Virus record (IMG/VR): IMGVR_UViG_3300046001_007123 | Length of the DNA: 64,000 nucleotides | Source of the DNA: a virus | Reading direction: 5' to 3' (one strand) | In this document: one piece after another, positions 47,349 to 64,000 of the stretch | How positions within the stretch are numbered: the stretch's first letter is position 1 | Layout of the letters: each line of letters opens with the position of its first letter | Translations under genes and position numbers: made by a program | The notes under the pieces: generated by a model | Database searches by the model: none | What the model saw: only the letters and a program-made list of their open reading frames with translations | Told to the model about the DNA's origin: nothing

Positions 47349-47445
47349 AGTCAGGTGGCGGAATGGTAGACGCTGATATTTGAGACTACAAGAAACCTAG
47401 GAACGGAAGTGGCAGCTCATACAGGTTCGAATCCTGTCCTGACTA
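47349..47445 (+). ncRNA. tRNA-derived element D (47-nt centre)
   Basis: Conserved halves. The centre has a CCUAGG palindrome. Confidence 0.5.
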
Positions 47446-48461: not shown

Positions 48462-48824
48462 ATGAACCTACAAGAAAACATACAAAGAATTAGAGAAATG
48501 ATGGGAATGGATAATTCTCGTTTAACTTTTGACATACAAAAACTTGTGGATGATGAAATTATATTCGTTACAGAACCAGGTGATGGACAAGGAGGAATTG
48601 CAAAACCAAATTGGGAAGGGGATTGTAGTGTAATAACATTAGCCAACTTAACAGATGATGAAATAAAATTAAATCCGTGGAGATTAAAGGCAATAGAAAG
48701 ACCTTTTAGTGATTGCATACCATATGTCCAAGATAGACAAAATGAATGGAGTGAAGAAAAATACCAACAAGTTATTGATTCAATAAAAATGAAAGGTGAA
48801 GAAGTTGATAATTATATAATATGA
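48462..48824 (+). CDS. family-2 member (MNLQENIQRIREMMG)
   Basis: Start moved to the ATG directly after the TATATTTATTAAT box. Confidence 0.5.
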   Translation: MNLQENIQRIREMMGMDNSRLTFDIQKLVDDEIIFVTEPGDGQGGIAKPNWEGDCSVITLANLTDDEIKLNPWRLKAIERPFSDCIPYVQDRQNEWSEEKYQQVIDSIKMKGEEVDNYII

Positions 48825-49276
48825 ACCTACAGGAACACATAAGAAGAGTACTAAAGGAAGAGACGTTAAAGACCAAATTAATTCACAACATCAAGAATGA
48901 TGGTTGGTTTAATGTTTCGCCATATGTAGGTGGTGATGATAATCTTAAAAAAGTTACTGACATACATAACGCGTTAGGTTTTATGAAGTTGTTTTTAGAT
49001 CTAAAAGGAGTTGTAAGCGAACAAGAACCACTAATGAGGTTATATAAAAATGAGAATGGGGAAAACGTATTTGTTATAAGAACTATATGGAATGAAAATA
49101 CGATTTACGTTAATTATGATTTAATTTTTAGACCATTAAAGGTTTTTTTAGAAACGGATACAAATATGAAGACAAGAGATTTTTTAGACAAATGGTTTAA
49201 AAATAAGTACGGTATTATAGTTAATGATTGGGTAAATCATTTCTCAAAGGATGATTATATAGGGATGATTAATTAA
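48821..49276 (+). CDS. family-2 member (MNLQEHIRRVLKEETLK)
   Basis: ATGA junction. Confidence 0.5.
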   Translation: MNLQEHIRRVLKEETLKTKLIHNIKNDGWFNVSPYVGGDDNLKKVTDIHNALGFMKLFLDLKGVVSEQEPLMRLYKNENGENVFVIRTIWNENTIYVNYDLIFRPLKVFLETDTNMKTRDFLDKWFKNKYGIIVNDWVNHFSKDDYIGMIN

Positions 49277-49752
49277 TACTCATCGGAGATCAATCTCTCA
49301 TAGTTTCTAGCAACCCCAACCAAATCATAGTCATCCAAGCATCTCCAAGAGTTAACAAATAAGATACGATTATATCCGATCTCAGACACGTTCTCATAAT
49401 ATTCAAGAGATTCGTCATCAATAATAAGAAACTTCGTGTAACCCTCAGATTTACGTTTAATAACAAACCCAGCACGATCATCGGGATCACCAAAGGTAAG
49501 ACCATTCACAATGATACCTCTACTAATCAAGAAATCCTTAAACTCCTCACCATCATTAGATCCGTTCCAATAAGAGCGACCCCAAGTAGATACAATACAT
49601 ATATGAGCATCAAACATTGTGATGATACTATTAAGGACTTCAACAGATTTAGGGATGAAAGAATGTTTACCATCAGGATCACGGTCCTTTAGTTTAAGGT
49701 AACTAACAAGTACACCATCAATGTCAAGATATATAGTAAACGGTTTTTCCAT
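49273..49752 (-). CDS. HAD-superfamily phosphatase
   Basis: MEKPFTIYLDIDGVL (motif I DxDG), CIVSTW (motif II), K, IIDDE (motif IV). The upstream TTTGTACT-ATGGAAAAA copies the + strand leader. Confidence 0.65.
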   Translation of the reverse strand: MEKPFTIYLDIDGVLVSYLKLKDRDPDGKHSFIPKSVEVLNSIITMFDAHICIVSTWGRSYWNGSNDGEEFKDFLISRGIIVNGLTFGDPDDRAGFVIKRKSEGYTKFLIIDDESLEYYENVSEIGYNRILFVNSWRCLDDYDLVGVARNYERLISDEY

Positions 49753-49788
49753 AGTACAAAGATAATAATAATATATGTATGACACAAT

Positions 49789-49873
49789 AAGAGTATACGA
49801 TTAAACTATTCATTACATCCTCCCGTTCGTAAACTCACTACGGACTTCATTCATAATTTTATCCTATACTCTT
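49789..49873. repeat. 85-bp element with 9-bp terminal inverted repeats (AAGAGTATA...TATACTCTT), copy 1
   Basis: Internal CCGT-loop-ACGG hairpin. A second copy (about 80% identical) lies at 50886..50967. Confidence 0.6.
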
Positions 49874-49906
49874 TTGTAGAATGGGAATCTTTTATATATT
49901 TGTATT

Positions 49907-50089
49907 ATGGAAAATACAAAATCACTTTTAGATGAGGTTCTCGAACACTATGAGAACAACGATCAACCTACAGACGAAACTCCGTCGGAGGTTAAAGAAT
50001 CTTTCTGTAAATTACAGGAGTATTTAGTTGGGGATGGGGATATTCGACATCTGTATGATTACTACAATTTAGTTAATCAAGGTAAGTAA
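49907..50089 (+). CDS. hypothetical acidic protein
   Basis: 60-aa ORF with the ATATATTTGTATT-ATGGAAAA leader. Confidence 0.4.
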   Translation: MENTKSLLDEVLEHYENNDQPTDETPSEVKESFCKLQEYLVGDGDIRHLYDYYNLVNQGK

Positions 50090-50096
50090 AAAAACT

Positions 50097-50130
50097 TAGA
50101 TCCTCCATTGTGAAGTGGGGGATTTTTTGT
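50097..50130 (+). terminator. rho-independent terminator (GATCCTCCA-loop-TGGGGGATT, T6)
   Basis: ATCC..GGGGAT type. Confidence 0.65.
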
Positions 50131-50141
50131 ATATTTGTTTT

Positions 50142-50888
50142 ATGGACATTGAAAAAAAGATATCAATTAAGAATTTTATTAAAGACCTCACAGTCTCTGA
50201 AGTAGTTGATTTTTTTGGGTCTTTAAAAAACGTATCAAAAATTCTTGGATATGAATCAATTTTAAATCTTTATGGTGCGACTGATAACGGACATCCCGAT
50301 TATATTTTTTATGACGGAGTTAAACAAACAGTAACAAATGATTTTAATTTTGGTGATTGGACTAGTATAAATAAAATTATTTGGGACTCAGGTCAATGTT
50401 TCCACACAAACATTACTAACCTTTCCAATATGCAATCTACATCAGGTAATTTTGGTATTTACGATTTAGTTTTAACTAATTTCGGAGGTTTAGAAATTCA
50501 CAACGGGGATTTTATTGTGGGACACGATTCTACAATTATTATTTGGGACACTTTAAAAAATGTATTGGGCAATTTAGTAATCTATGAAACAGCTTGCGTG
50601 GAAAGTTTGGGAAATTTAAAGATAGTTGGTGGTAAGTTAGACATTAGAGGGGTAGTGCATGATTTAGGTGAGTTAGAATATGTCGGAGGAGATTTAATTG
50701 TAAAAAACAAGTTACTCAAATCTTTAGGTAATGTAAAACACATAAAAGGTAGACTTAGAATTAGAAATAGTGGGATATCAGATATTGGTTCTTTAGAGAA
50801 AGTTGATGGTGGAGTTTTAATAGATAAAAACACGCCAACTTCTTTAATTAATCAACTTAAAGAACGAAACATTAAGTACAAAAAGTAA
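50142..50888 (+). CDS. leucine-rich-repeat-like protein
   Basis: Repeating LGNLVIY / SLGNLKIVGGKLDIRG / LGELEYVGGDLIV / SLGNVKHIKGRLRIRN / IGSLEKVDGGVLI units. Confidence 0.5.
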   Translation: MDIEKKISIKNFIKDLTVSEVVDFFGSLKNVSKILGYESILNLYGATDNGHPDYIFYDGVKQTVTNDFNFGDWTSINKIIWDSGQCFHTNITNLSNMQSTSGNFGIYDLVLTNFGGLEIHNGDFIVGHDSTIIIWDTLKNVLGNLVIYETACVESLGNLKIVGGKLDIRGVVHDLGELEYVGGDLIVKNKLLKSLGNVKHIKGRLRIRNSGISDIGSLEKVDGGVLIDKNTPTSLINQLKERNIKYKK

Positions 50889-50967
50889 GAGTATACGATC
50901 AATTCATTCGGTTCATAGTCCTCCGTTATCACTACGGAATTCACCTCATAAATTTATCCTACACTCT
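50886..50967. repeat. 85-bp TIR-bounded element, copy 2 (AAGAGTATA...TACACTCTT)
   Basis: Starts on the stop codon of 50142..50888. The internal CCGT-loop-ACGG hairpin is conserved. Confidence 0.6.
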
Positions 50968-51247
50968 TACCGTTATTATAGGTCCATAAGGTAAAATATA
51001 ATTTACAAATTAATGTATATTTGTAAAAAGTATTTTCAGTTATTAATCCCCCCACTTATAAAAGACCCCCAATGAAAGACAGACATTATGGTATACAATT
51101 TTGTTATACGATGAGGTATTCATTGTGGTGTTCATTTTAAAGGAATGTTCAGTTACACTGAACATAAAGAATTAGTGAACAGATGAAGGAATATATGAAA
51201 GTATATTTTAGTATGTAGATGAAAGGGTTATTAAGTATATCATTCAG

Positions 51248-51264
51248 GTCAGGTTAAACCTGAC
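51248..51264. other. perfect 7-bp hairpin GTCAGGT-TAA-ACCTGAC (acceptor-stem sequence of the tRNA-derived elements with no insert)
   Basis: GGTCAGG...CCTGACTAT mirrors the AGTCAGG...CCTGACTAC ends of elements A to F. Confidence 0.4.
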
Positions 51265-51495
51265 TATAGTGATATAAAAGATACCCACTTATTACCACCA
51301 CTTTACTTGTATGTTTAGTATGTCTATTATTAGGGGGTCAGATGTTGAATGGATCCCTTACGGGTCGTTGAAGAATGATTATAATATGACATTATGTCCT
51401 ACTCTAACGTCCTAAAGGACTGTCCCCGCTCATTGTACTCTAACACTATATTTTTTGCTGGAATTTATATATAGTAAAAAAAATGGTCTTCTTGA

Positions 51496-51517
51496 CCCCT
51501 ACAGAGGGGATTTTTTA
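51496..51517 (+). terminator. orphan rho-independent terminator (CCCCT-ACAG-AGGGG, T6) in a non-coding region
   Basis: No ORF upstream, which suggests a small RNA 3' end. Confidence 0.45.
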
Positions 51518-51683
51518 TGGCTGGTCATACAACCAGCAAGGATTATGGTGGTAGAAAGTGGTAATGAAATGGGGAAGTAATAGATCAAAACCCCGTGAGG
51601 GGATTGTGTGGTGAAGCGAACGTGACTGACATTTTGACAAAATCAAGTTTTTTAACATATATTTATTAACAAAAGTCCCCCTT

Positions 51684-51965
51684 ATGATAGAATTAATCAA
51701 CAAGTTCTCAACAACACTAACCGATAATAACGGTACCATAATGGTTAATTATGAGAATGGTCCCCTAACAGGGTTCTGTGAGTATAGTATGATCGAAGTA
51801 AATAACCGATTTAAACAGAAGGCGTGGGTTCTTGTCAACACCGATATGGGTGATGTCATAGAGTTCATTCATTCCAACTCCCCTCTGTCAGGAGAGAAAC
51901 TACAAGATGTTAATAAGTTATTAAGAGATCATTCCCTTTCAAAGGTCAAGGAGATCAATCCTTAA
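51684..51965 (+). CDS. hypothetical protein
   Basis: 93-aa ORF with the TATATTTATTAAC box 20 nt upstream. Confidence 0.4.
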   Translation: MIELINKFSTTLTDNNGTIMVNYENGPLTGFCEYSMIEVNNRFKQKAWVLVNTDMGDVIEFIHSNSPLSGEKLQDVNKLLRDHSLSKVKEINP

Positions 51966-52173
51966 TAGGGGGTTCAAGAACATCATCCTCAAGTAAACCT
52001 TTCTCAAGGGGTTTAGTAGGTTCAAGATCTATATCAGAGATAATATGTTTACTGATCCACATCCCCAACTTAGTGTGGGGGCGTGTCTTAACTATATGAA
52101 TACTGATTAGTATTGGTAAGGATAGAATGGCGATCCCCAACATACACAGAAGGAAGTATAAGATATAAATCAT
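51955..52173 (-). CDS. small membrane protein
   Basis: 72 aa with an N-terminal TM helix YILYFLLCMLGIAILSLPILISI. Confidence 0.4.
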   Translation of the reverse strand: MIYILYFLLCMLGIAILSLPILISIHIVKTRPHTKLGMWISKHIISDIDLEPTKPLEKGLLEDDVLEPPIKD

Positions 52174-52355
52174 TCTTCGTCCTCTTCTTCAATAAGGTTT
52201 AGTTCAGTAGATGGTAGAACACAAGGGATGGTTCTAACGATCATAGATGAAACCCCCAATCCAAATAGGGATGACAATAGTACGATAAGTAAATTAGTTT
52301 TCATATATCTCCAAAAAGTTAATGGTCCAATCATACATTCTTCTAACAGGTCCAA
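52170..52355 (-). CDS. small membrane protein with acidic tail
   Basis: 61 aa (LLIVLLSSLFGLGVSSMIV), ending EEEDEE. ATGA overlap with 51955..52173. Confidence 0.4.
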   Translation of the reverse strand: MDLLEECMIGPLTFWRYMKTNLLIVLLSSLFGLGVSSMIVRTIPCVLPSTELNLIEEEDEE

Positions 52356-53120
52356 CCAATGAACAGTAGAGTCTGTACATAATGAGGGGTAATGTTAAAT
52401 AGAGAATAGTAATCATATGTAAATATAAGTATAATATTTTGATTGACAATATGTTTTTTATAATAGATGATTATATTTATAATAGATCATTCACCCCACG
52501 CAGGGTGTTAGTTGTTCAGTCACTTCGGTACGTAAAGGATAAGATGATCACAACAAACAAACAATAAGATCTGTAATCTCTTACAAACGTGGGGGAATTT
52601 TTTTATGCTTATATATATTATAAGGCAGGTTGGAGTCTACACTCCAAGGGGTGTTGTTCCCCCAGCCCGACATCTCTCTCACATTGTCCATACAAAGATA
52701 GGGAATATAATTGACACCACCAAAGGATCACTAAGTTATTTACTAAATAAAGTTATTAACAATATACCTACCTCCCCTGATCTTGGCATGGGGGTCCTCC
52801 TGTCATATAGACCCCTCCCCCCCTCCGTATCCCCCCCATATATGACATTTTGACACCCTATTAGGGGGGTCAATCCCGCGTGTAACGTATTCGTAAAAAA
52901 TTTTCTGGAAAAAAATTTGGGAAAAATGGAAACTATTTCCCCCATCTATTCTTGGATTTATCTATATGAATACACCACATAAATCCAATCATAATCCGTA
53001 AAGTAAAACTCTTCTAATCTGTAATGTCGACCCCCTCTTCAAATGGATCCCAAATACTGAAAAAAAATTTCTGGAAAAAATTGGGGAAAATGGGAGTATT
53101 TATAATTAAACAATAACATT

Positions 53121-53348
53121 ATGAAAAAAGTAATTAGATTAACTGAAAGGGATCTTGAGAATATCGTTAAACGAACAATCAATGAGTGGGACGAAAATAC
53201 TTTGTATAAGGACATCAAAGGAATAATCAGAAACTCCAATTCGGGACGAGAAGAAGTTATTAGTATTTTGAGAACCATTGCTGACGAAATGGAATCAGGT
53301 GGGAGAATGAGTGACAACATCAGAAAGAGATTTAGAGGTGAAATGTAA
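53121..53348 (+). CDS. family-1 member (MKKVIRLTERDLENIVKRTINEW)
   Basis: 75 aa with its own terminator. Confidence 0.55.
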   Translation: MKKVIRLTERDLENIVKRTINEWDENTLYKDIKGIIRNSNSGREEVISILRTIADEMESGGRMSDNIRKRFRGEM

Positions 53349-53374
53349 GTAACCCCTTTTGTAAATAAAAATTA

Positions 53375-53408
53375 AACCCCTTCAACCACGGAGGGGTTTT
53401 TTGTTTTC
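53375..53408 (+). terminator. rho-independent terminator (AAACCCCTTC-loop-GGAGGGGTTTTTT)
   Basis: GC stem plus T-run. Confidence 0.7.
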
Positions 53409-53426
53409 CATAGTATTTATTTATAT

Positions 53427-53903
53427 ATGAAAATCATTATCACAGAATCTCAATTAAATCTATTTCTTAATGAAGAATCATTAAAACAGAATCTACTATC
53501 TCAGATTGAGGAGAACGGGTGGGCTGAAACCGCCGAACTTGTTGGGTATAAAAACCTTTTAAACATTGTTGGTTATGATAAGTTGGTTGACTTATTGATT
53601 TCCTCTTTTAATGATTTAAATGTAATAACAAGGGGTCGTAATGTAATCTTACGTGATAACCACCTCCCATTAATGGAAACAACTAAAGATGTATTTGGGG
53701 ATAATTGGGTAATGGTATATAACGATCATATTATATTGAGACTCGAACTTAGATTGGGTTCCGACATTTTAGAAATTTATGAAAAAGTAAGAAGGGAATT
53801 CATTAGGGAACTAATAAATAGATTTCCTGAATTATCTGGACAAAAAGTTGAGGTCTTTAAAGACAGCGGACTTTATCAAAAATACGATTCATTTGAGTTA
53901 TAA
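53427..53903 (+). CDS. family-1 member (MKIIITESQLNLFLNEES)
   Basis: 158 aa. GTATTTATTTATAT-ATG leader. Confidence 0.55.
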   Translation: MKIIITESQLNLFLNEESLKQNLLSQIEENGWAETAELVGYKNLLNIVGYDKLVDLLISSFNDLNVITRGRNVILRDNHLPLMETTKDVFGDNWVMVYNDHIILRLELRLGSDILEIYEKVRREFIRELINRFPELSGQKVEVFKDSGLYQKYDSFEL

Positions 53904-53914
53904 TATTTATTAAT

Positions 53915-54295
53915 ATGGAACAATTAATTAAAAGGATTATTAGGGAGTCGGTTATGGGGAAGTTCGTTGAATCTCATATCCCCCAGCTTAACAACCTTAA
54001 AAGGAAATCTAATTATAGTTCTCGTTTGTATGGATCAAACGTTATCTATTACGATAAGGACAGTAAGGAATATTATTTTAGGGTTGCCGAACCAAGGGAC
54101 GTATATTATTGGGACGAAGTTGAGGATAAGTACATATTAAGGAATGTCGGGAAAACCTTATATATCCTTAAAGATCTTTATAATGAAATATCTGACTTCA
54201 TCCCTAACGATGATATGATATTAAAATGGTTTAACGAGAAGTATAAACAAGATGCCGAAAGGTTGCAAACACATTATATTCTAAAACAAGCATAA
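53915..54295 (+). CDS. family-2-like member (MEQLIKRIIRESVMG)
   Basis: 126 aa. ATATTTATTAAT-ATG leader. Confidence 0.5.
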   Translation: MEQLIKRIIRESVMGKFVESHIPQLNNLKRKSNYSSRLYGSNVIYYDKDSKEYYFRVAEPRDVYYWDEVEDKYILRNVGKTLYILKDLYNEISDFIPNDDMILKWFNEKYKQDAERLQTHYILKQA

Positions 54296-54302
54296 CTCAT
54301 CT

Positions 54303-54632
54303 ATGAAATTAATAATCACTGAAGATCAATATAATAAATTATCCCTACGTAGAAGATTGGGGGATATGTTAAATGTTGCGTCTGATTTAATCGATATGGG
54401 TGATGAATTTTATGGTAATCTTGATTTCTGTAAGTATTTCCCCACGTTTCAGAAATACATAAGTAATATAGTTGGGGACATTATAGAACTTTATGACCCT
54501 GATTATGGTATTGATGATATATCTGATTTTATTTATGAGGGTGTTGGTTACGAAACCTTCGTTAAGTTATTAATGGATGAACACGGGGCTAAGATTAGAA
54601 GTTTCTATAATAGAAAAACAAGAGATTGTTAA
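54303..54632 (+). CDS. family-1 member (MKLIITEDQYNKLSLRRR)
   Basis: 109 aa. Confidence 0.55.
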   Translation: MKLIITEDQYNKLSLRRRLGDMLNVASDLIDMGDEFYGNLDFCKYFPTFQKYISNIVGDIIELYDPDYGIDDISDFIYEGVGYETFVKLLMDEHGAKIRSFYNRKTRDC

Positions 54633-54698
54633 TAATTCTGCCTTTCTTATTGAATCCGGAAACGGATCCCGACTTCGTCGGAAAAAAATCGACCGACC

Positions 54699-54718
54699 GA
54701 ACCCTTCGGGTCTTTTTG
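54699..54718 (+). terminator. GC-rich hairpin (ACCC-TTC-GGGT) plus T-run. A second hairpin, CCGAC-TTC-GTCGG, lies at about 54669..54681
   Basis: Unusually GC-rich 80-nt spacer. The 64-aa ORF 54577..54771 that covers it is probably spurious. Confidence 0.5.
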
Positions 54719-54786
54719 TGATTATTAAGTTGTTTACTTTAGTAGTCCCTTCAGAAAAAGGTGGTTGTTAATATATTTATTATAAT

Positions 54787-55416
54787 ATGAAATACATTAT
54801 AACCGAATCTCAGTATCAGTCCATTAAGGAGTCTTTAGAAAAAAACAAAAAGTTTTTAATTAAAACTATGGGTGTTGATCTAACCGACAATATTCAGATG
54901 GTAAACTCACGATATGATGTCCCGACGGAATTTGATGAAGGTATTAGTCCTGATTTGGTTAGACGTATGTTAAACAATTGGGGACCTATGTATCTTTTTA
55001 ATCTGAATGGTAAGGATTATTTATATCAGGATCGTGGGGAGTACGAATGGTTTATTGATACGGAGGGTTTTGAGTTTGTTGATAATGAAATTATTGAGAA
55101 ACTTGGGGTTGATGTATTGGGTATGGATTTTTCTGATATAATTAAAGTATTTTATACTGAAGATCAATCCATAAACGAATCCACAGAAAAGGATTATACT
55201 TCCCTGATCGATAAGTTTATTTCCGAATATGATTTCCCTGATTATTTTAAGGGATATAACATTGGTAGAGATGACGACGCGTATAAGGTCACATTTGTTG
55301 TCGGTAAAGAACAAATGAAAAGATACCAAGAGGTCTTCAAGGTAATCGAACCATTATTTGACGATATAAATTCTTTCATTCCAATTAATGTGTGGCCAAA
55401 GGTTGAGTATAAGTAA
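54787..55416 (+). CDS. family-1 member (MKYIITESQYQSIKESLEK)
   Basis: 209 aa. ATATATTTATTATAAT-ATG leader. Confidence 0.55.
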   Translation: MKYIITESQYQSIKESLEKNKKFLIKTMGVDLTDNIQMVNSRYDVPTEFDEGISPDLVRRMLNNWGPMYLFNLNGKDYLYQDRGEYEWFIDTEGFEFVDNEIIEKLGVDVLGMDFSDIIKVFYTEDQSINESTEKDYTSLIDKFISEYDFPDYFKGYNIGRDDDAYKVTFVVGKEQMKRYQEVFKVIEPLFDDINSFIPINVWPKVEYK

Positions 55417-55435
55417 AATCTCAAATTGACCTTTC

Positions 55436-55458
55436 AGGTAAAGTGTCTACCTTTTTTA
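55436..55458 (+). terminator. rho-independent terminator (AGGTA-loop-TACCT, T6)
   Basis: Stem-loop plus T-run after the 54787 gene. Confidence 0.55.
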
Positions 55459-55534
55459 CTCTTTCTTTTTATTTATAAAGAAAAATCCCTATGAAAAAAA
55501 TAGTAAAATAAAAAAACTACATATATTTATATGT

Positions 55535-56191
55535 ATGAACAAAAGTTATAGTAAAATCAGACACATCCAAGAATCCAATAGGTTAATGGAAAACAGAACC
55601 TTAGGAAGAAAAGTTTTGCTTGAGTACGACATTGATGATGATAAAATGTCATCTGTTGATCAAGAATTAAATTCCGTTGCACCCGATGTTCAGGCATTAA
55701 ACCCTCAATTCGATTTTAGTAGTGTTGAAGCTGCTCAAAATAGCGTTGATAATAGTGAGATATGTCAAATCGGTGATGATGTTGAGGGATTTGTTTCAAG
55801 AAGATTTGGACAAAAGATTAAGGAGATGTTTCCTGACAAAGCTCAAGAGGTAATTAAAACAATGTCAGGTTACATTAGTAAGTTTATTGATTATTTATCA
55901 TCATTAAAGTTATCCGACCTTAAATCATTGGTTAAAAGTCTGAAGTCAAAAATAAAAGGTGATGAGGTTGTTTCTGAAGAAATAATTAAAGAGTTCTTTG
56001 GTACAAGTATGGCTCTTGTTACGATCGGATCATTTGCAATGCCAGCATTAGTTTTAACAATCGCGTCTTGGGTAATTGTAGGTTTGGTTACACTTTGGTT
56101 ATTAAAAGTCATTTTGTGCTCATTCAACATAAATATAACTACGAAAAATAAGTGTCGAGTTAAAAGTTTTTCTTGGGGTCAGTGTAATTAA
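55535..56191 (+). CDS. hypothetical protein with C-terminal double TM anchor
   Basis: 218 aa. MALVTIGSFAMPALVLTIASWVIVGLVTLWLLKVIL. Confidence 0.45.
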   Translation: MNKSYSKIRHIQESNRLMENRTLGRKVLLEYDIDDDKMSSVDQELNSVAPDVQALNPQFDFSSVEAAQNSVDNSEICQIGDDVEGFVSRRFGQKIKEMFPDKAQEVIKTMSGYISKFIDYLSSLKLSDLKSLVKSLKSKIKGDEVVSEEIIKEFFGTSMALVTIGSFAMPALVLTIASWVIVGLVTLWLLKVILCSFNINITTKNKCRVKSFSWGQCN

Positions 56192-56197
56192 GATATA

Positions 56198-56551
56198 ATG
56201 AAAAAAATAATAAAATTAACTGAGTCGGAATTAATTAACGTTGTTAAAATGGTAATTGAATCAAATGATGGTCCCACCATTCCAAAACACATTCAAAGGA
56301 GATACTCAGACATTAAAGATGCTGTTTATGATTATTTGCTTTTTTTTAATATGAATCAATTGGTTGGTAATTTTGATGATTTTAGATCAGAACTTGCTTG
56401 GGACGTAGCAAACGAAGTACTGACTAAGTCCAAAAACGACGGTGATTTAACAACGAGTAGAAATCAAATGATCCAATTCATTAAAAATCACTTTTACGAA
56501 GAACTAAAAGAATATTACGATCGGAATAATTATTGGTCCAGAAAAAAATAA
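56198..56551 (+). CDS. family-1 member (MKKIIKLTESELINVVKMVIESNDG)
   Basis: 117 aa. Confidence 0.55.
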   Translation: MKKIIKLTESELINVVKMVIESNDGPTIPKHIQRRYSDIKDAVYDYLLFFNMNQLVGNFDDFRSELAWDVANEVLTKSKNDGDLTTSRNQMIQFIKNHFYEELKEYYDRNNYWSRKK

Positions 56552-56553
56552 CA

Positions 56554-56592
56554 AAATCCTCCATCATAATTGATTGGGGGATTTTTTTTTAT
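56554..56592 (+). terminator. rho-independent terminator (AATCCTCCATCA-loop-TGATTGGGGGATT, T9)
   Basis: ATCC..GGGGAT type. Confidence 0.65.
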
Positions 56593-56604
56593 TATATTTT
56601 TTTT

Positions 56605-57105
56605 ATGGAACGAAGTAATGAACATAACTCCTATATGGCGTATAAACAACACAAAGAAGATAATGAATTAAGAGGACTCATTTACAATAAATATCTTAAG
56701 GTATTAGGTAGATTTATTGAGAATATGTATCCTAAATTAAAATTTGATATTTTTGTTTGTGAACGCAATAAAAAACAAAGAAAGTCGGACTGGTATGGAA
56801 TGGTATATATGAATTTAGTCATTTATGATGTAATCAGGCAACCAATATATAACCCAAGAACCTTTGACCCCAGTTATAGGTCGTTAAGTTACGATGGGTT
56901 TATATCGTCTTACGATTTTTATGACACAATAGATTCTTATATGTCAGAAATAAATAAACATCTTTTAATATCCTTTGAACCTCCAAGAGATGAAAATATG
57001 TCGACCACTATGATGATGTCTAATATGTTACAAATTCCTGACTTTGAATGTTGGGTGGAACATTGGAAAAAATCCTACGTCAAAGGCGATTTTCAAATAT
57101 ATTAA
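56605..57105 (+). CDS. hypothetical protein
   Basis: Start moved to MERSNEHNSY, directly after the terminator and T-run. The upstream part of track ORF 56533 is terminator sequence. Confidence 0.45.
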   Translation: MERSNEHNSYMAYKQHKEDNELRGLIYNKYLKVLGRFIENMYPKLKFDIFVCERNKKQRKSDWYGMVYMNLVIYDVIRQPIYNPRTFDPSYRSLSYDGFISSYDFYDTIDSYMSEINKHLLISFEPPRDENMSTTMMMSNMLQIPDFECWVEHWKKSYVKGDFQIY

Positions 57106-57125
57106 CTAAAATAAAAACAGAAACA

Positions 57126-57383
57126 ATGGCAAAAATTAATGTTTATCGTACTGAATCCTACGACACTTGGATTCTTAAAGAACCTGTGGAAATTGACACA
57201 GACAACTACCCTGAAATGGAGGGAATGACCGAAGAGGAAATGAAAGATTATATTCGTGATAATTATCACGATATGAAACCAGTCAATGGTGAGTGGTATG
57301 ATAGTCTGTCAGAAGAATTGGACAGTCAGGACATCCGTAGAGATAAGATCACAAACGAAGATCAAGACATTATGTTTGATTAA
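57126..57383 (+). CDS. hypothetical acidic protein
   Basis: Start moved to MAKINVYRTESYD. Confidence 0.4.
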   Translation: MAKINVYRTESYDTWILKEPVEIDTDNYPEMEGMTEEEMKDYIRDNYHDMKPVNGEWYDSLSEELDSQDIRRDKITNEDQDIMFD

Positions 57384-57387
57384 ATTT

Positions 57388-57414
57388 AAAACCCCCTTAA
57401 TTGGGGGTTTTTAT
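57388..57414 (+). terminator. rho-independent terminator (AAACCCCC-TTAAT-GGGGGTTTTT)
   Basis: Perfect 6-bp stem with T-run. Confidence 0.7.
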
Positions 57415-57475
57415 ATGGTAATTACCATATATTCACAATTATATGATGATTACCATATATTTATAGTAAAAAACT

Positions 57476-57649
57476 ATGAAACATTTATTGAACGATATGA
57501 GTTCTGAGGAGAAGAATAGTATCCGAGAACAACACGAAGGTGGAATTAAAGTAGACACTTCAAAATTTAAATCACTTTTGGAATCTAAATTAGGGGATTC
57601 AAAACCATTGGTTGATGAAGTTTCTGAAACAAAAAATAAAACTAAATAA
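57476..57649 (+). CDS. 57-aa protein made of two shared modules (not in ORF track)
   Basis: MKHLLNDMSSEEKNSIREQHEGG is related to the N-terminus of 59803 (ISESEKERILGMHKEAT). KFKSLLESKLGDSKPLVDEVSE is related to the N-terminus of 45194 (RFKQLLESTMGDAKPLISEQEE). It has its own terminator. Coordinates are good to about 1 nt. Confidence 0.45.
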   Translation: MKHLLNDMSSEEKNSIREQHEGGIKVDTSKFKSLLESKLGDSKPLVDEVSETKNKTK

Positions 57650-57654
57650 TGATT

Positions 57655-57680
57655 AACCCACCACAAGTGGGTTTTTTATT
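57655..57680 (+). terminator. rho-independent terminator (AACCCAC-CACAA-GTGGGTT, T6)
   Basis: CCCACC type. Confidence 0.65.
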
Positions 57681-57712
57681 TATTTGTGAATCTTTTAAAT
57701 TATTATTATAAT

Positions 57713-57892
57713 ATGACGAACGAACAAAAAGGGGTGGCTTACGGCAAGTTAATGGTTGAACACACCAAATTACAGAACAAAATGGCAGAAATACAAGGAT
57801 CATCTATCAATTTATCTAACGATCAATTGAAAGAGGTTGAGGAGATCAAAAGGAAAATGGTTTACATTTTTAATTTAGCGTCTCGTCTCTAA
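57713..57892 (+). CDS. hypothetical protein
   Basis: Start moved to the internal ATG (MTNEQKGVAYGKLMVEHTKLQNK...), because track ORF 57686 begins inside the preceding terminator. Confidence 0.4.
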   Translation: MTNEQKGVAYGKLMVEHTKLQNKMAEIQGSSINLSNDQLKEVEEIKRKMVYIFNLASRL

Positions 57893-57895
57893 TGA

Positions 57896-57928
57896 AACTA
57901 CCCACCTCATCGGTGGGTTTTTTGTTTT
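57896..57928 (+). terminator. rho-independent terminator (CTACCCACC-TCAT-CGGTGGGT, T6)
   Basis: Part of a 50-bp block that is repeated exactly at 58536..58585. Confidence 0.7.
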
Positions 57929-57946
57929 ATGTAGTATTTATATCAT

Positions 57947-58516
57947 ATGAAAATTGTTATTTCTGAATCCCAATATCATAGTCTTTTTAAAAGTCAAGAT
58001 GAAAAGAACTCAAACCTCATCTATAAGATGTGGAATGATGGTATGGACATTTATGAGATTTCAGAACTATTGGGTATGAAGGAAACCCAAGTGGTCGTCC
58101 TACTTAAAGATAAAGAAATCAATATTGATTGCGGATTTGCCGATTACTTACTTCCAATACTTTATAAGACAAATTTACTTAATACAAAATTTAACTTTAA
58201 CGGGGGTCAGATGAAAATTGAGTTAGAATGGTCGAATTTTGGTGGGTATCTAGAATTTGAATATGAGGACAAAGATTGTAGGTTAGTGGGAATGGCAACC
58301 CCTTATTGGAACGGTGATTGTACAACACCTGTTGATGGGAGTGAATTTGAAAATAAAATCACGGGTGATTACGTTGATAGTTACACAGAATTAGGTTTAC
58401 GTATTGACTCCCCCTCTAATTTTAAATCAATACAAGAACTTATGGATTTTCTAAACAACTATTTCCCAAAACAATTGATCATCCCAATAAGAACATTAAT
58501 AGACTACTATAAATAA
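57947..58516 (+). CDS. family-1 member (MKIVISESQYHSLFKSQDEK)
   Basis: 189 aa. Confidence 0.55.
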   Translation: MKIVISESQYHSLFKSQDEKNSNLIYKMWNDGMDIYEISELLGMKETQVVVLLKDKEINIDCGFADYLLPILYKTNLLNTKFNFNGGQMKIELEWSNFGGYLEFEYEDKDCRLVGMATPYWNGDCTTPVDGSEFENKITGDYVDSYTELGLRIDSPSNFKSIQELMDFLNNYFPKQLIIPIRTLIDYYK

Positions 58517-58535
58517 AAATACGTTTAATATATCA

Positions 58536-58585
58536 TCTCGTCTCTAATGAAACTACCCACCTCATCGGTGGGTTTTTTGTTTTAT
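58536..58585 (+). repeat. exact 50-bp duplicate of 57881..57930 (TCTCGTCTCTAATGAAACTACCCACCTCATCGGTGGGTTTTTTGTTTTAT), including the terminator
   Basis: Copy 1 covers the last 4 codons and stop of gene 57713..57892. Copy 2 is purely intergenic. Confidence 0.7.
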
Positions 58586-58598
58586 CGTATATTTATTA

Positions 58599-59021
58599 TT
58601 GATGGACAAACCGGAAGCGATATCAAAAGAAAAAATAAAAAAGATCAATAAGGTCATTAAAGATATGGTCTTTACTTATAAAGGACCTGTGTCAGAATAC
58701 AACAATGGAGAATTCCAATATCAGATTAGTATTTCGGGTCAAAAACATATGATTTCTGTTGGTGAGTATTATAATTATTTAATTATGGATGTTGTTATAA
58801 TTGACGGATCACCTATGACAACATTATTCATAAAATACTTACCTTATATCTTGGGTGATTATAAAACTTTAAATTATTTAAGTCGTGAAATTTCAGAAGA
58901 ATTACAATATTTTTTCGGAGTTGAGTACGTTAGAGTTGTTTATAGTGATGGGAAAATTAAGGTAAGCGAAGAATATCAACAGAAGATAGATAATACTGAA
59001 CCAGAACAATTTCATAAATAG
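58599..59021 (+). CDS. hypothetical protein
   Basis: 140-aa ORF. Confidence 0.4.
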   Translation: MMDKPEAISKEKIKKINKVIKDMVFTYKGPVSEYNNGEFQYQISISGQKHMISVGEYYNYLIMDVVIIDGSPMTTLFIKYLPYILGDYKTLNYLSREISEELQYFFGVEYVRVVYSDGKIKVSEEYQQKIDNTEPEQFHK

Positions 59022-59060
59022 TATTTAAAATGTCAATTACTCTGTCTATTATTGTTTTTA

Positions 59061-59372
59061 ATGAAAAAGGCAATCTCAAATTTATTTGATTTAGTTTATG
59101 GGACTATCAGTCCGTTGGAATCAAAAATATTTGGTAAAATATGTTTTATTTTCTATGATGAAGATACATTTAAACCCATAATTGTTTATTATCCATCCAC
59201 CAGAGATGTTAAAACGTTAAGAGATAAGGAAATGGACTTCTCAACATTTATCCCCCTTCATAGTCAAGATTTTAAGGAACAGTTTTCATATTGGATGGAA
59301 CAAAAATTTGGTAAGGAAATATTGTTCAAGGGTATTGACTTCATTGAATTTACTGAAGAACTACTTATGTGA
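59061..59372 (+). CDS. hypothetical protein
   Basis: Start at MKKAISNLFDL. Confidence 0.4.
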   Translation: MKKAISNLFDLVYGTISPLESKIFGKICFIFYDEDTFKPIIVYYPSTRDVKTLRDKEMDFSTFIPLHSQDFKEQFSYWMEQKFGKEILFKGIDFIEFTEELLM

Positions 59373-59383
59373 TATTTATTATT

Positions 59384-59725
59384 ATGAGTGTAAGAGACGA
59401 ACTATTAAAATTTAAAAATTCATCACCAAGGAATAAAAAACAATCTTTAAACGAGCAAAGTGTTTTTTCTAACTTACCGGGAGTACAACCTGATAAGATG
59501 AATTATCAGAGACCCATCCCCGACCCTGTTACAATACCGGATTGTTTTTCGGTTCTTATGAACCTAAAAGATAATATGGTTTCTTTTGATAAAAACTCAC
59601 TTAAAGACGAAGTTCAAAAAAGAATGAATGGGGTTGACATCATATTTGATCCTAACGCTCATTCTAATGATTTAGGAATTACCGTAATGAAGGATGGTAA
59701 ACCATTTTGTTTTGTTAGTAAGTAA
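59384..59725 (+). CDS. hypothetical protein
   Basis: Start at MSVRDELLKF. Confidence 0.4.
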   Translation: MSVRDELLKFKNSSPRNKKQSLNEQSVFSNLPGVQPDKMNYQRPIPDPVTIPDCFSVLMNLKDNMVSFDKNSLKDEVQKRMNGVDIIFDPNAHSNDLGITVMKDGKPFCFVSK

Positions 59726-59740
59726 AAAATATTTAAATTA

Positions 59741-59768
59741 AAACCTCATAGAATGGGGTTTTTTTATT
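59741..59768 (+). terminator. rho-independent terminator (CCTCAT-AGA-ATGGGG, T8)
   Basis: Stem with T/G wobble plus a long T-run. Confidence 0.6.
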
Positions 59769-59802
59769 TATTGAAATATTTATTAATGTATAAAAATTAC
59801 AT

Positions 59803-60636
59803 ATGAAAAAAAATCTATTTATAATAAGTGAATCCGAAAAAGAAAGAATCTTAGGGATGCACAAAGAAGCTACCAAAAGAAGTTATATTTCTGAACAAGC
59901 GGCACCGGCAGCACCTGCGGCAACTACACCGGCAGCACCTGCGGCAACTACACCGGCAGCACCTGCGGCAACTACACCGGCAGCACCTGCGGCAACTACA
60001 CCTGAGGCAACCGCACCAACTGGAGAAACAACATATAGTTCTTATAGTGATTACGATTACGACTATAAAAAAGAAGGAGATAAATACTTTTTCAAATTAA
60101 AGTTTGAACCTAAGAGTCCTAAAGCGTTGGCATACAAAAATGCTGGTAAATTTTTATCTTGGACCGAACCAACAGGAAAAGCATTAGAGGCAATAAAAAA
60201 ATTACCATTCTCAAGTGAGAAATTAGCAACCAAACCAGCAACGGCAGTTACTGGCCAACTTGCTGCTGACCAATCTAAGACATTGGCGGCATCAGGTGGT
60301 GGTGGTAGTGTACCAAAACTTGCTGACCCAATTGGTGATGCTAAAAAATTGATGCCTAAGATAGATACTTTAGACCCTGTAAAATCAAGTGAGGTTATTG
60401 CTTGGTCAAAATCACCTTCAGGTCAATACGTCCTTAATACACCGGCAGATCAAAGAGAGGCCGCGTTGGATAATTTAGATCGTAGAAAGGGTGATGCAAA
60501 AACGAGAGAACTTAAAAAAGAGATTAGACAAGCTTTAGGTATGTCAGCTGACACTTTAGTTGGTAAGGTAGCATCTTCAGTAAGAGGAGGCGTCCAAGGA
60601 CTTAAACAAGGGTTCCGACAACAAGTAACTAAATAA
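59803..60636 (+). CDS. protein with family-1-like N-terminus (MKKNLFIISESEKERIL) and a (TTPAAPAA)x4 linker
   Basis: 277 aa. The C-terminal half is Lys/Ala-rich. Confidence 0.5.
   Translation: MKKNLFIISESEKERILGMHKEATKRSYISEQAAPAAPAATTPAAPAATTPAAPAATTPAAPAATTPEATAPTGETTYSSYSDYDYDYKKEGDKYFFKLKFEPKSPKALAYKNAGKFLSWTEPTGKALEAIKKLPFSSEKLATKPATAVTGQLAADQSKTLAASGGGGSVPKLADPIGDAKKLMPKIDTLDPVKSSEVIAWSKSPSGQYVLNTPADQREAALDNLDRRKGDAKTRELKKEIRQALGMSADTLVGKVASSVRGGVQGLKQGFRQQVTK
59905..60000 (+). repeat. 4 x 24-nt perfect tandem repeat (CCGGCAGCACCTGCGGCAACTACA) encoding PAAPAATT
   Basis: Four identical copies with no synonymous drift. The duplication is recent or the tract is length-variable. Confidence 0.8.
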
Positions 60637-60656
60637 ATAATTAATTAAATAAAAAT

Positions 60657-61220
60657 ATGAAAAAAATTAGATTAACCGAGACAGAATTTAGATCACTTAT
60701 AAAAAGAATTGTGGTTGAAGCTCAAAATGAAATGTATAATGATGAAATTGAAGAGGGTATGTTCGGAGGTTTTGGGGATAAACTTGACGATGCTGTAAAA
60801 GGTGTTGCTGATTTCTTTAAGAATGAAGTGTTATCTGATTTATCCGATGAGGACAAAATGAATTTAAAAAGAAGAATATCTAACGTTAACATTGAAAGAG
60901 AAATGGAAAAGGTTGACAATGGTGAAGAAGATATGTTAGAAGAAGGAATTATCACTGAGGGTATTGGTGATCGATTAAGAAGTTTCTTTGAGAGATTAGG
61001 TATTGGTAGTGGTCTTGGTATTTCCGCTTCTGGACTTTTAGGTCTTGTATCAAACGGAGCTGGATGGTCTGAAAGTGAAATATTAACAAATGTTCACGAT
61101 ATTATGCAGAACGCAGGGATTGGTAATTACGGTGGACCTGTTTCACTTTTGGTAATTATCGCAGGAATTGCCTTGGCGTTAAAATCAACATCAATGAGAC
61201 ATAATAGAATGGGTAAGTAA
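60657..61220 (+). CDS. family-1 member with Gly-rich C-terminal TM anchor (MKKIRLTETEFRSLIKRIVVEAQNE)
   Basis: 187 aa. GPVSLLVIIAGIALAL near the C-terminus. Confidence 0.55.
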   Translation: MKKIRLTETEFRSLIKRIVVEAQNEMYNDEIEEGMFGGFGDKLDDAVKGVADFFKNEVLSDLSDEDKMNLKRRISNVNIEREMEKVDNGEEDMLEEGIITEGIGDRLRSFFERLGIGSGLGISASGLLGLVSNGAGWSESEILTNVHDIMQNAGIGNYGGPVSLLVIIAGIALALKSTSMRHNRMGK

Positions 61221-62095: not shown

Positions 62096-62159
62096 AAAAT
62101 ACAATTTCTATAAAAACTAACAAATAAAAACTATTATGTAAAACGATATTTATAATAAA

Positions 62160-62354
62160 ATGAAAAATTTTCTAAAATACCTTTATATTAATTTGATGAA
62201 CAAATATGGATCCTTTATGTGGTTTGGTATTCATATGGGTGTGACTCAAGTTACTTGGCATTGGTTAATGGAAATTGGTTTGTGCGTGTTGATTAATTCA
62301 ATGGTTTTACATACCCTTTACCTTGAATGGAAAGATTCGTTTAAAAAAAATTAA
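62160..62354 (+). CDS. small hydrophobic protein
   Basis: 64-aa ORF. Weak call. Confidence 0.3.
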   Translation: MKNFLKYLYINLMNKYGSFMWFGIHMGVTQVTWHWLMEIGLCVLINSMVLHTLYLEWKDSFKKN

Positions 62355-62389
62355 ACACAACCCCATTAACATAAATTCGTTTATATAGT

Positions 62390-64000
62390 ATGAGACATTT
62401 ATTACTTTTATTTTTATTCCCCCTTTTTGTTTATTCACAATATTGTCCTGACTTGGGTCCAGATCAATTTTTACCTTGTGGGGTAGGAACAACAACTCTA
62501 ACGGCTAATTTAAGTCAATGTGGGCCTGGAGGTCCTAACCCTAAACAAACTACGAATTATGGGGTGACTAACATTCCGTATGTTTCACAAACTAATACAG
62601 GGACTCAGTTATTTATGACTGATGATTCACAACAGGGTCCATTTAATATTGGGTTTAACTTTTGTTTTTTTGGAACAACATATACTCAATTTTATGTTGG
62701 GTCTAATGGGTGGATATCATTCGGTGGGGGACAACCAACAACGTTTACATCACAATCAATCCCAACGGGAAATGTGTTAGTCCCTAATAATTGTATTATG
62801 GGTCCTTGGCAAGATTGGCATCCAGGGATTGGTGGTCAGATAAGATATCAATTACAAGGCACTGCTCCTTGTAGGAAGTTAGTTATCAGTTGGATCGGTG
62901 TACCTATGTTCCAATGTAATAGTAATTTTGGAACATTCCATATTGTAATATATGAGACAACAAATATTATTGAAAATCATATCCAAGATAAACCTGATTG
63001 TTCTCAATGGCAGAATGGTACGTCAGTTCAAGGGATACATAACTCAACAGGTACGATTGGAATACCGGTTCCTGGTAGAAACTCAACCTCTTGGACTGCA
63101 AATAACGACGCATATCGATGGACGCCAAGTGGACCTACGGTAAATCCTGTTTTAACTTGGTTTAGAATAGGTAACCCTAACCCAATTGGGACTGGACCGA
63201 CAATAAATGTAACTCCTCCCGCAATAGGTGCTCAATATACGTGTCGATATGTCTATCCTATCTGTAATGCGGGGTGGTCAACTTGTAATTCAGTTGCAGG
63301 ACCAGGTCCTGACACCGTATTTGTTTTACCGGGTCTACCGAATCTACCTCAACCCACTATAACAACAACAAACCCAACGTGTTATCAGTATTGTGACGGA
63401 TCAATAAATGTTGTTCCTGTTGGTGGAAACGGAGTTCAAACAATTTCGTGGAATAACGGGATACCAAATAACTTTACTAACAACTTTTTATGTTCTGGTG
63501 TCTATAACTTTTTAATAACTGACTCTCAAGGTTGTACCGTAAGTGGGAATGTTACATTAGTGGATCCACCACAAATAATTGTAGACCCTATTGTTGGAAC
63601 AAGTATCCTATGTTATAACTCAACTACTAATCAGTTCACCACCTCGAGTCTAAACCCTAATTTAAATTACGTTTGGACGACAACAAATGGTAATATTACC
63701 TCAGGACAAGGGACTCCTCAAGTTAATTTAGACGTTACGGGTGTTAATGGGGGTAATTACCCTAATATGTTGTCGGTATACGCTGAAAATAACCTTGGAT
63801 GTTTAAGTCAAACTGAAAATTTCACTATTGATGTGTTAAACATACTCCCAATTATCGATCCTCTTGGTCCATATTGTGAATATGATGGGTGTGTTAACAT
63901 TAATACAACACCTACAGGTGGTATTTTATTCGGTAATAACGTTTGGGGAACACAATATTGTCCTGACAATGGATTTATTGGGTTAGATAATGTTACTTAC
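62390..64000 (+). CDS. secreted SprB-repeat / Ig-like adhesin-type protein, N-terminal 537 aa (continues beyond window); missed by the ORF track
   Basis: I translated it by hand. There is no stop from ATG 62390 to base 64000. Signal peptide MRHLLLLFLFPLFVYSQ. Repeated Cys-containing units such as CYQYCDGSINVVPVGGNGVQTISWNNG match the SprB repeat pattern (C.G..DG.I....GG..PY.Y.W). Confidence 0.65.
   Translation, partial: MRHLLLLFLFPLFVYSQYCPDLGPDQFLPCGVGTTTLTANLSQCGPGGPNPKQTTNYGVTNIPYVSQTNTGTQLFMTDDSQQGPFNIGFNFCFFGTTYTQFYVGSNGWISFGGGQPTTFTSQSIPTGNVLVPNNCIMGPWQDWHPGIGGQIRYQLQGTAPCRKLVISWIGVPMFQCNSNFGTFHIVIYETTNIIENHIQDKPDCSQWQNGTSVQGIHNSTGTIGIPVPGRNSTSWTANNDAYRWTPSGPTVNPVLTWFRIGNPNPIGTGPTINVTPPAIGAQYTCRYVYPICNAGWSTCNSVAGPGPDTVFVLPGLPNLPQPTITTTNPTCYQYCDGSINVVPVGGNGVQTISWNNGIPNNFTNNFLCSGVYNFLITDSQGCTVSGNVTLVDPPQIIVDPIVGTSILCYNSTTNQFTTSSLNPNLNYVWTTTNGNITSGQGTPQVNLDVTGVNGGNYPNMLSVYAENNLGCLSQTENFTIDVLNILPIIDPLGPYCEYDGCVNINTTPTGGILFGNNVWGTQYCPDNGFIGLDNVTY

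Follow-up and report, generated by a model that had tools for sequence, protein, structure and literature searches.

The stretch of viral DNA analysed in this study (IMG/VR record IMGVR_UViG_3300046001_007123; 64,000 nucleotides, referred to below as the window) contains at least 21 genes, all on the + strand and making up approximately 20% of the genes present, which begin with related N-terminal modules. The + strand as a whole is crowded with small genes. Four forms of this leader were distinguished: (i) v1a (pattern MK[ILY][IVS]I[TS]E.Q, consensus MKIIITExQ), (ii) v1b (pattern MKKI[IV][KR]LTE[SRT][DE][LF]..[IVL][IV]KR.I.E, consensus MKKIIRLTESDLTRIVKRVIxE), (iii) v2 (pattern M.ELI[KR][KH]IL[KN]E[ES], consensus M+ELIRHILKEE), and (iv) v3 (pattern hh[IL][ST]E.EK.RIL.LH). 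The leaders are 7–22 residues long (approximately 35 in the lysozyme family described below) and consist of a short basic/hydrophobic stretch and an amphipathic basic helix. Behind the leader come a flexible linker of acidic character and the body of the protein; the bodies are mostly small and acidic and are not related to one another. The tripeptide [ILV]-x-E is present in all four variants, and the v1b leader contains two L/I-x-E sites. Of the 21 genes with a strict form of the leader, ten are preceded by a promoter box of their own, [AG]TATTTAT, placed 4–19 nt upstream of the ATG codon, and its position is given below with the gene concerned.

Four genes carry the v1b leader. The first, 1752–2087 (111 aa; MKKIVKLTESDLIRIVQRVIQE, then GKTD; box at 1740), is followed on the same strand by an orphan leader ORF of 15 aa at 2087–2134 (MKIIKLTESDLTNII, then a stop codon), which was detected in a six-frame scan. 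Two-leader proteins occur as genuine single ORFs in the databases (P0129–P0161), and one of them, P0129, is a homolog of the 1752 gene product fused to a second leader and body, i.e. the intact two-leader arrangement; in the window (1752–2134) the second gene is reduced to the orphan leader, which is its remnant. The other v1b genes are 53121–53348 (75 aa; MKKVIRLTERDLENIVKRTINE, then WDEN; box at 53096, terminator at 53374–53399), 56198–56551 (117 aa; MKKIIKLTESELINVVKMVIES), which is coupled to the box-headed gene 55535, and 60657–61220 (187 aa; MKKIRLTETEFRSLIKRIVVE, then AQ), with a C-terminal hydrophobic segment. A full-length homolog search with the 56198 protein returned close orthologs only.

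The v1a leader opens nine genes. Four of them form a cluster: 29044–29595 (183 aa; MKIVITESQ), translationally coupled within a unit headed by a box at 27443, 29592–29963 (123 aa; MKIIITESQ), 29963–30295 (110 aa; MKIIISENQ) and 30297–30599 (100 aa; MKIILTEKQ). A single 100-aa gene stands in place of these four in a syntenic 241-kb relative (L220). The gene 35541–36452 (303 aa; box at 35529) encodes a leader, a propeptide-like region of approximately 35 residues and a GH24 lysozyme (MKLSITE...KLSILTE, then DE; Pfam Phage_lysozyme, 1.7e-18). Among the 688 homologs of this protein E7 is conserved in at least 90% and E35 is invariant, and the invariant [IL]-x-E35 lies directly ahead of the start of the conserved body. 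The remaining v1a genes are 53427–53903 (158 aa; MKIIITESQ; box at 53413–53421, + strand), 54303–54632 (109 aa; MKLIITEDQ), without a box of its own, 54787–55416 (209 aa; MKYIITESQ; box at 54773) and 57947–58516 (189 aa; MKIVISESQ; box at 57934), which is bordered by terminators at 57900–57918 (upstream) and 58555–58573 (downstream).

Eight genes have the v2 leader: 37803–39344 (513 aa; MKSLIKKVLQEEVKGILTES; box at 37790), with a weak DHH phosphoesterase match that is likewise found in its ortholog L017:1082, 39678–40319 (213 aa; MKQLIRHILKEE; box at 39665), 40316–40822 (168 aa; MRELIRKILNES), coupled through an ATGA overlap, 40819–41056 (78 aa; GTG start, (M)RELIRHILKEQ), 41664–42113 (149 aa; MKELIRHILKEE), 44667–45122 (151 aa; MNLKEQIKKVLREE; box at 44654), 48821–49276 (151 aa; MNLQEHIRRVLKEE) and 53915–54295 (126 aa; MEQLIKRIIRES; box at 53903). 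A weakly v2-like gene lies at 48462–48824 (120 aa; MNLQENIQRIREMM; box at 48450), and an internal v2-like copy (LKEHIKKVLKEE) is encoded at 42422–42457 (+ strand), around residue 105 of ORF 42110–43756. The v3 form is represented by 59803–60636 (277 aa; MKKNLFIISESEKERILGMH; box at 59776), whose product contains PAAPAATT repeats, and by a weak member starting at 57476; the v3 module was also identified in five other loci (L005, L006, L011, L018 and L040). Every gene start listed in a preliminary description of this DNA was found in the window. The family membership proposed there also held, except that 59803 belongs to the sister variant v3 and not to v1, and that 48462 is only weakly related to v2.

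A six-frame regex scan of the window detected the v1 core 13 times, in 12 cases at the start of an ORF and always on the + strand, with no occurrence on the - strand. Of the 55 occurrences of the v1b core in the window and 16 unrelated viral contigs, 54 were N-terminal, as were 41 of the 43 occurrences of the v1a core. The v2 core gave 41 matches, of which 18 were N-terminal and 21 formed the second half of v1b leaders, 15 residues in; v1b is therefore composed of a v1a-like half and a v2 half, a relation that the preliminary description did not contain. All-vs-all BLASTP comparison revealed that similarity between members is limited to residues 1–13 (v1a) or approximately 1–35 (v1b, v2) and that the bodies are unrelated; taken over all members, it does not extend beyond the first 10–40 residues, in agreement with the earlier statement that the genes diverge completely behind the module. 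Only a few bodies have a second short module in common: G(W/L)xxAxELVGGxxNL follows the leader in the 40316, 40819, 48821 and 53427 proteins and in the database protein P0062. A further short module, FKxLLESxxGDxKPL, is common to two otherwise different proteins (45194–45805 and 57476–57649). The bodies have a median length of 132 aa and a median pI of 4.95 (68% are below pI 6), and a transmembrane-like segment was detected in only 1% of them. We rejected a signal peptide or membrane anchor, given the charged, amphipathic character of the leader and the rarity of such segments in the bodies.

The 11 strict leader genes that lack their own box are translationally coupled (ATGA or TAATG overlaps) behind a box-headed gene. 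Every one of the 21 leader genes belongs to a unit headed by a box, vs 30 of the 86 other genes of the window (Fisher p = 1e-8). Besides those already mentioned, boxes are located at 55523, 57457, 58589 and 59372, and the box is also found ahead of genes outside the family. Terminator-like hairpins are enriched (15 found vs 5.4 expected); the one at 57900–57918 (+ strand) is an example of an intrinsic-terminator hairpin between units, and further examples lie at 57393–57407, 57655–57673 and 59740–59762. The preliminary description had assigned a promoter box and a terminator to each gene. This was an overstatement: it applies to the boxes of about half of the leader genes and to the general enrichment of hairpins, but not to the coupled genes.

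Selection acts on the peptide encoded by the leader, as proposed earlier, because the synonymous codons at its invariant residues are mixed and close to background usage (Leu6: TTA 24, CTT 20, CTA 4, CTG 3; Arg17: CGA/AGA/CGT; Ser9: TCN and AGT), and because the leader DNA is only 62–73% identical and its longest exact runs have a median length of 8 nt. The same data bear on the view that the conserved element is one of nucleic acid, either a signal for translation initiation on near-leaderless mRNAs or a recombination linker that shuffles gene cassettes. The box lies just 4–6 nt from many ATG codons, which implies very short 5' untranslated regions; moreover, orphan and fused leaders occur, and the segments between conserved genes are hyperplastic and differ in gene content between close relatives. 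Such an element does not agree with codons that vary like background, with the low identity and short exact runs of the leader DNA, or with the genes that have the same box without a leader. In view of the statistics on codons and identity, we rejected the readings as a DNA repeat, recombination linker or translation element, and we consider any explanation of this kind largely refuted and extremely improbable.

An alignment of 112 database proteins revealed that L7, E9 and E22 are the only invariant columns of the leader and that I20 is conserved in at least 90% of the sequences. E22 was present in 50 of 51 aligned sequences collected with a regex that did not require it, and conservation ends directly after this residue. 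L7 and E9 correspond to P3 and P1 of the LTE site, while I20 and E22 correspond to P3 and P1 of an I-x-E site. The (L/I)-x-E motif noted in the preliminary description thus coincides with the most conserved residues of the leader.

Structure prediction, which had also been proposed, was performed with AlphaFold2 for two proteins. In the 56198 protein the leader forms a helix (residues 9–21, pLDDT approximately 60) and is separated by a hinge (residues 21–23, below 50) from a helical-bundle body (75–91), whereas in the 35541 lysozyme residues 1–61 have pLDDT values of 31–47 and the GH24 domain 85–96. In both models the leader is predicted to be a detached, low-confidence element standing apart from the folded body. 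E, D, S and G are abundant among the 15 residues that follow v1b leaders. These models, together with Pfam searches in which the module gave no match in the 112 database members, led us to reject the possibility that the motif opens a known globular domain; searches of Pfam and PHROGs with the window members were likewise negative for the module.

Family members in public data were counted by an exhaustive profile search of 1.84 billion representatives of 50%-identity protein clusters. With a v1b-type profile, 8,558 cluster representatives were recovered at E <= 1e-3 and 885 at E <= 1e-10, nearly all of them matching from residue 1; in a search of 5.8 billion proteins this profile of 22 residues reached 60–68 bits. 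Contigs of IMG/VR carry up to 18 leader genes per 13 kb. In 185,579 cellular species genomes the module was essentially absent (10 weak matches, mostly on short contigs of metagenome-assembled genomes), and no match was obtained among GenBank phages by megablast of the region or by tblastn of one member and of the v1b consensus. The 112 database members have almost no Pfam domain in common and the cargoes are nearly all "dark matter", except that several of the larger ones have domains acting on the cell wall (GH24, SLT, PG_binding_1) and that a weak DHH match was obtained. No names are recorded for the family members of NCBI origin, and the module is not mentioned in the literature searched, the Far-T4 paper included. 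It constitutes a very large virus-specific protein family without a Pfam or PHROG entry.

Head genes of leader-bearing relatives were located by reading ORFs, followed by a Pfam test. On L016, a contig with leader genes, a Peptidase_S77 protease (84 bits) is encoded together with a hyper-acidic scaffold protein and a Gp23 capsid protein (2e-40). Proteases of this type are present on more than 600 viral contigs, and together with the prohead-core and scaffold genes they occur on leader-bearing contigs of the lineage (L016, L119–L182). No protease was found in the window, the flanks of its 120-kb contig or the loci L001–L117; when the protease, capsid, scaffold and core proteins were used as tblastn queries, neither the window nor L001–L117 gave a match. 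The prohead protease and scaffold, whose presence elsewhere in the genome had been suggested as a check, were therefore recovered from the lineage and not from the window's own contig. In many of the protease-bearing contigs conserved leader genes adjoin the head module, e.g. in L119, L121, L123, L127, L145, L182, L153 and L168–171, and some leader genes are placed within it; near this module orthologous bodies bear either a v1b or a v2 leader.

The box that precedes the leader genes also precedes the head genes of the related loci: counting unique loci, it was found ahead of the S77 protease in 46/47, the scaffold gene in 48/51 and the prohead-core gene in 50/53 (background: 2.7% of random 50-nt windows). 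In Flavobacterium phage vB_FspM_immuto (genus Immutovirus), which resembles the lineage in its T4-type head module with an S77 protease, the same box (TATTTATAA) lies ahead of the portal, core and sheath genes. This strongly suggests that it is the late-type promoter box of the lineage, and we infer from the sequences that the leader genes share the late expression class of the head genes.

Several head proteins contain comparable sites themselves. The product of the gene that follows the capsid gene in L168 starts with MNRLNQIIRKVIIE, then ATGDSS, and its ortholog in L145 with MSNNKLNE, then ATVTSS. The capsid protein contains ...HLINE followed by ATSD at the place that corresponds to the cleavage site of T4 gp23. 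The core protein starts with ...CLTES and the immuto protease with ...GLLTES. The scaffold protein (L016:14137–15642, - strand; L168:3934–5571) has an extreme acidic low-complexity region (MDSDEMDFEMDSDEEEMDFDMDSDEMD...) and an internal v2-like stretch (STMSEEIRQLVKESLKE, approximately residues 34–48). The net charge of the leader is +3, and its electrostatic docking on the hyper-acidic scaffold is plausible.

On this evidence we lean towards the interpretation that the shared head is a capsid-targeting propeptide of the T4 type, as the preliminary description had supposed. It is favoured by the invariant L/I-x-E, the S77 protease and Gp23 protein of relatives, the shared box and the detached leader, while the own contig without a head module and the acidity of the bodies count the other way. 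In T4 the capsid-targeting sequences are N-terminal propeptides of 10–19 residues, which attach cargo to the prohead core before being removed, and gp21 cuts after Glu in L/I-X-E (PMC9026906); the cleavage sites of Alt are ITE-6 and LTE-619 (PMC5694885), and the internal proteins of T-even phages have little in common beyond the capsid-targeting sequence (PMC3012670). The leaders described here resemble those of IPI, IPII, IPIII and Alt in that (i) they are short N-terminal peptides on otherwise unrelated, poorly conserved proteins, (ii) they end with L/I-x-E, reading MKIIITE and KLTE vs ITE/LTE in Alt, and (iii) contigs of the lineage encode a gp21-family protease and a Gp23 capsid protein, and the leader genes have what appears to be a head-gene (late) expression class. 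Unlike those of T4, they are longer and bipartite (22 residues, two sites), are far more conserved across divergent phages, have no evident sequence homology to the T4 sequences, and occur on at least 20 genes per 64 kb and in more than 8,500 clusters, vs 4 in T4. The device may thus represent a variant of the T4 capsid-targeting system, bipartite, more conserved and massively expanded, in uncultivated freshwater jumbo phages.

According to this model, the leader genes would be transcribed with the head genes from the common TATTTAT late-type box, and the basic leader would dock each protein on the hyper-acidic scaffold or core of the assembling prohead. The gp21-family (Peptidase_S77) prohead protease would then cut after Glu at ITE/LTE and/or VIxE, freeing the cargo inside the capsid, and the cargo would probably enter the next host along with the DNA. 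A broader claim, that the lineage is globally abundant and uses one label of about 22 residues to load the capsid, for co-injection, with a repertoire that takes up approximately one-fifth of its genes and amounts to over 8,500 distinct cargo families in public data, is advanced tentatively, as something possible rather than probable. The anti-restriction and host-takeover functions of T4 reside in injected proteins (IPI*, Alt); an anti-defence role of the present cargoes is speculation.

A number of observations weigh against capsid targeting. The head module was not found on the window's 120-kb contig, its flanks included (the left flank was scanned and the right one inspected through Pfam marks), and the tie to a T4-type head exists at the level of the lineage only, through a 69%-identical homolog in the protease-bearing L160, the same box and the gene content shared with immuto. 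Some non-structural genes, e.g. that of a GIY-YIG endonuclease, likewise have the box ahead of them. At least 20 cargo species per 64 kb is, to our knowledge, far above the number in any characterised phage. The 60657 product ends in a hydrophobic segment, and genuine internal copies of the leader were found. A short L/I-x-E motif is expected by chance in approximately 20% of 22-residue peptides (our estimate), and L/I-x-E is not depleted in the bodies, although the protease model predicted depletion; [LI]TE is even enriched within them (14 vs 6.7 expected and 30 vs 8.8 expected), which may reflect internal leader copies or additional processing sites. Finally, the bodies are small like IPI–III but mostly acidic, whereas IPI–III of T4 are basic (PMC9026906).

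The acidity of the bodies, a property they have in common with the scaffold, and the excess of [LI]TE, which suggests multiple processing, would be accounted for if the leader targeted accessory proteins to the prohead core or scaffold and was cut there, the proteins acting in head assembly or being degraded and expelled instead of being injected as effectors. T4 gp67 and gp68, which are degraded and expelled or act in assembly, provide a model for such proteins, and the core protein and scaffold of the lineage themselves bear LTES-like and v2-like motifs. We regard this as unlikely, since the bodies are extremely diverse and variable between close relatives, unlike what is expected of an assembly function, and several of them have enzymatic domains (lysozyme, DHH) whose fold is predicted with confidence.

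The properties of the leader helix, which is strongly amphipathic and basic, and the very high conservation of the leader across divergent phages are also compatible with an uncleaved docking helix tethering many proteins to one partner outside the virion, e.g. a hub protein, a nucleic acid or a membrane. The internal copies within single ORFs point in the same direction, because they indicate that N-terminal placement is not obligatory. Yet the motif is N-terminal in approximately 98% of cases, and a docking helix leaves unexplained (i) the invariance of exactly L-x-E and E22, (ii) the end of conservation at Glu, and (iii) the fact that the leader occurs together with the S77 head module and the late box. 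This explanation retains a small but real chance.

A third function for a short N-terminal peptide is that of a degradation or processing tag recognised by a phage-encoded ATP-dependent protease, which would ensure timed turnover of a class of proteins. ClpX recognises N-terminal motifs of the Met-basic-hydrophobic type; the window encodes a ClpP protease (13423–14148; Pfam 1.7e-53), and a related locus a Lon-like ATP-dependent protease (phrog_4871). The clpP gene, however, is located apart from the leader genes in a block of genes that lack the box, an adaptor or unfoldase was not identified, and neither the Glu-centred invariance nor the association with the head module is explained by such a tag, which we consider very unlikely.

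For the capsid-targeting interpretation, further parallels exist in other phages. Jumbo phages phiKZ, 201phi2-1 and SPN3US produce dozens of head proteins with propeptides cut after Glu, some at multiple sites, and the SPN3US paralogs gp53 and gp54 have an identical 15-residue N-terminus and diverged bodies (PMC5694885). The propeptides of these phages do not form one conserved sequence family, however, and they are cut by an S80 protease at S/A/G-x-E, whereas an S77 protease and L/I at P3 are found here; moreover, the ejection or inner-body cargoes of giant phages are large proteins, in contrast to the domains of approximately 130 residues observed in this study.

The arrangement of the genes resembles the hyperplastic regions of T4-type genomes, in which small accessory genes are flanked by cassettes of promoter and stem-loop (PeSL). 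In both cases arrays of small variable genes lie between units of hairpin and promoter box, and their content differs among relatives. The box described here is of the late head-gene type, unlike the early promoter of the PeSL regions, and the common element is the encoded peptide instead of the flanking DNA.

Phage immuto (L223–L226; NC_055915.1) differs from the lineage in having only 2–3 weakly leader-like genes. Two of its genes (25061–25456 and 111675–112139) have a common head, MKKQILSEQF.RMQ.LAGIITES, and different bodies, and this pair may represent the device on a smaller scale, in a phage that can be cultured.

If the capsid-targeting interpretation is correct, the leader profile would find, from sequence alone, thousands of phage proteins delivered into cells ahead of gene expression, which are otherwise found only through virion proteomics of cultured phages. 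As a search key, it would open the largest known catalogue of effectors injected by phages, among them candidates for anti-defence and host takeover, and the leader would also serve as a portable, sequence-defined packaging tag for the engineering of Bacteroidota phages. Capsid targeting would then be an ancient, expandable trait of T4-type heads well beyond the T-even phages. Even under another mechanism, the leader proteins form a very large virus-specific family new to Pfam, PHROGs and the literature searched.

The window is part of a 120.5-kb contig from a lake metagenome, which is present in many samples. A 241-kb contig is syntenic with the window at 23.5–39 kb and relatives occur on contigs of up to 309 kb, which identifies the lineage as one of jumbo phages. 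The closest capsid proteins of cultured phages are those of Flavobacterium phage immuto (41% identity), followed by Microcystis phage Mel-JY01 and Rhodothermus phage RM378. Immuto also shares with the window genes for a C-type lectin, a cohesin-domain protein, ThyA and a phosphoesterase. The window represents an uncultivated, freshwater, Immutovirus-like lineage of T4-type jumbo phages.

Host-like envelope genes are present inside the phage genome (L020:191–2752, L037:8433–9995, window 15732–17642, L022:7478–9706); they encode a TonB-dependent receptor (853 aa), Por_Secre_tail or CHU_C proteins (sorting domains of the type IX secretion system, T9SS), cohesin, a C-type lectin and an SprB-like region. 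Auxiliary genes of this envelope type are unusual for a phage and indicate a Bacteroidota host, and the lineage as a whole probably infects Bacteroidota.

Pfam- and PHROG-type searches of the window revealed genes for ThyA, Acb3, ClpP, GIY-YIG and HNH endonucleases, glycosyltransferases and lysozyme, as well as proteins with cohesin, lectin and T9SS-sorting domains. The Acb3-like CBASS inhibitor is encoded at 11803–12495 (Pfam 1.6e-30). The flanks of the contig are phage-like, with Pnk, RNA ligase, methyltransferase and thioredoxin genes and the TonB-dependent receptor gene embedded among them, and a leftward walk along the contig in IMG/VR also found a GlnA-like gene and homing endonucleases. 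Within the left flank (L037:249–5638), a Pnk-like ATPase (PHROG match to ATPase/polynucleotide kinase), a phosphoesterase, an RNA ligase and a cREC_REC domain protein are encoded; the first three look like a tRNA-repair set. Two adjacent paralogs of the window, 6459–7721 (420 aa) and 7725–8918 (397 aa), have the common N-terminus M(I/K)NP(T/S)GNKLEK and no convincing family assignment.

Four stretches of the window are poor in ORFs, containing only short or dubious ones (49300–53100, 14716–15731, 19055–20121 and 62100–64000), and they gave no Rfam match at the gathering threshold. Elsewhere on the + strand, the Rfam tRNA model detected four tRNA-like elements with scores of 35–44 bits (44505–44612, 47349–47445, 47515–47636 and 47922–48022), none of which was called by ARAGORN. 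These elements have the acceptor, D and T arms in common, and differing inserts of 38–64 nt replace the anticodon and variable region.

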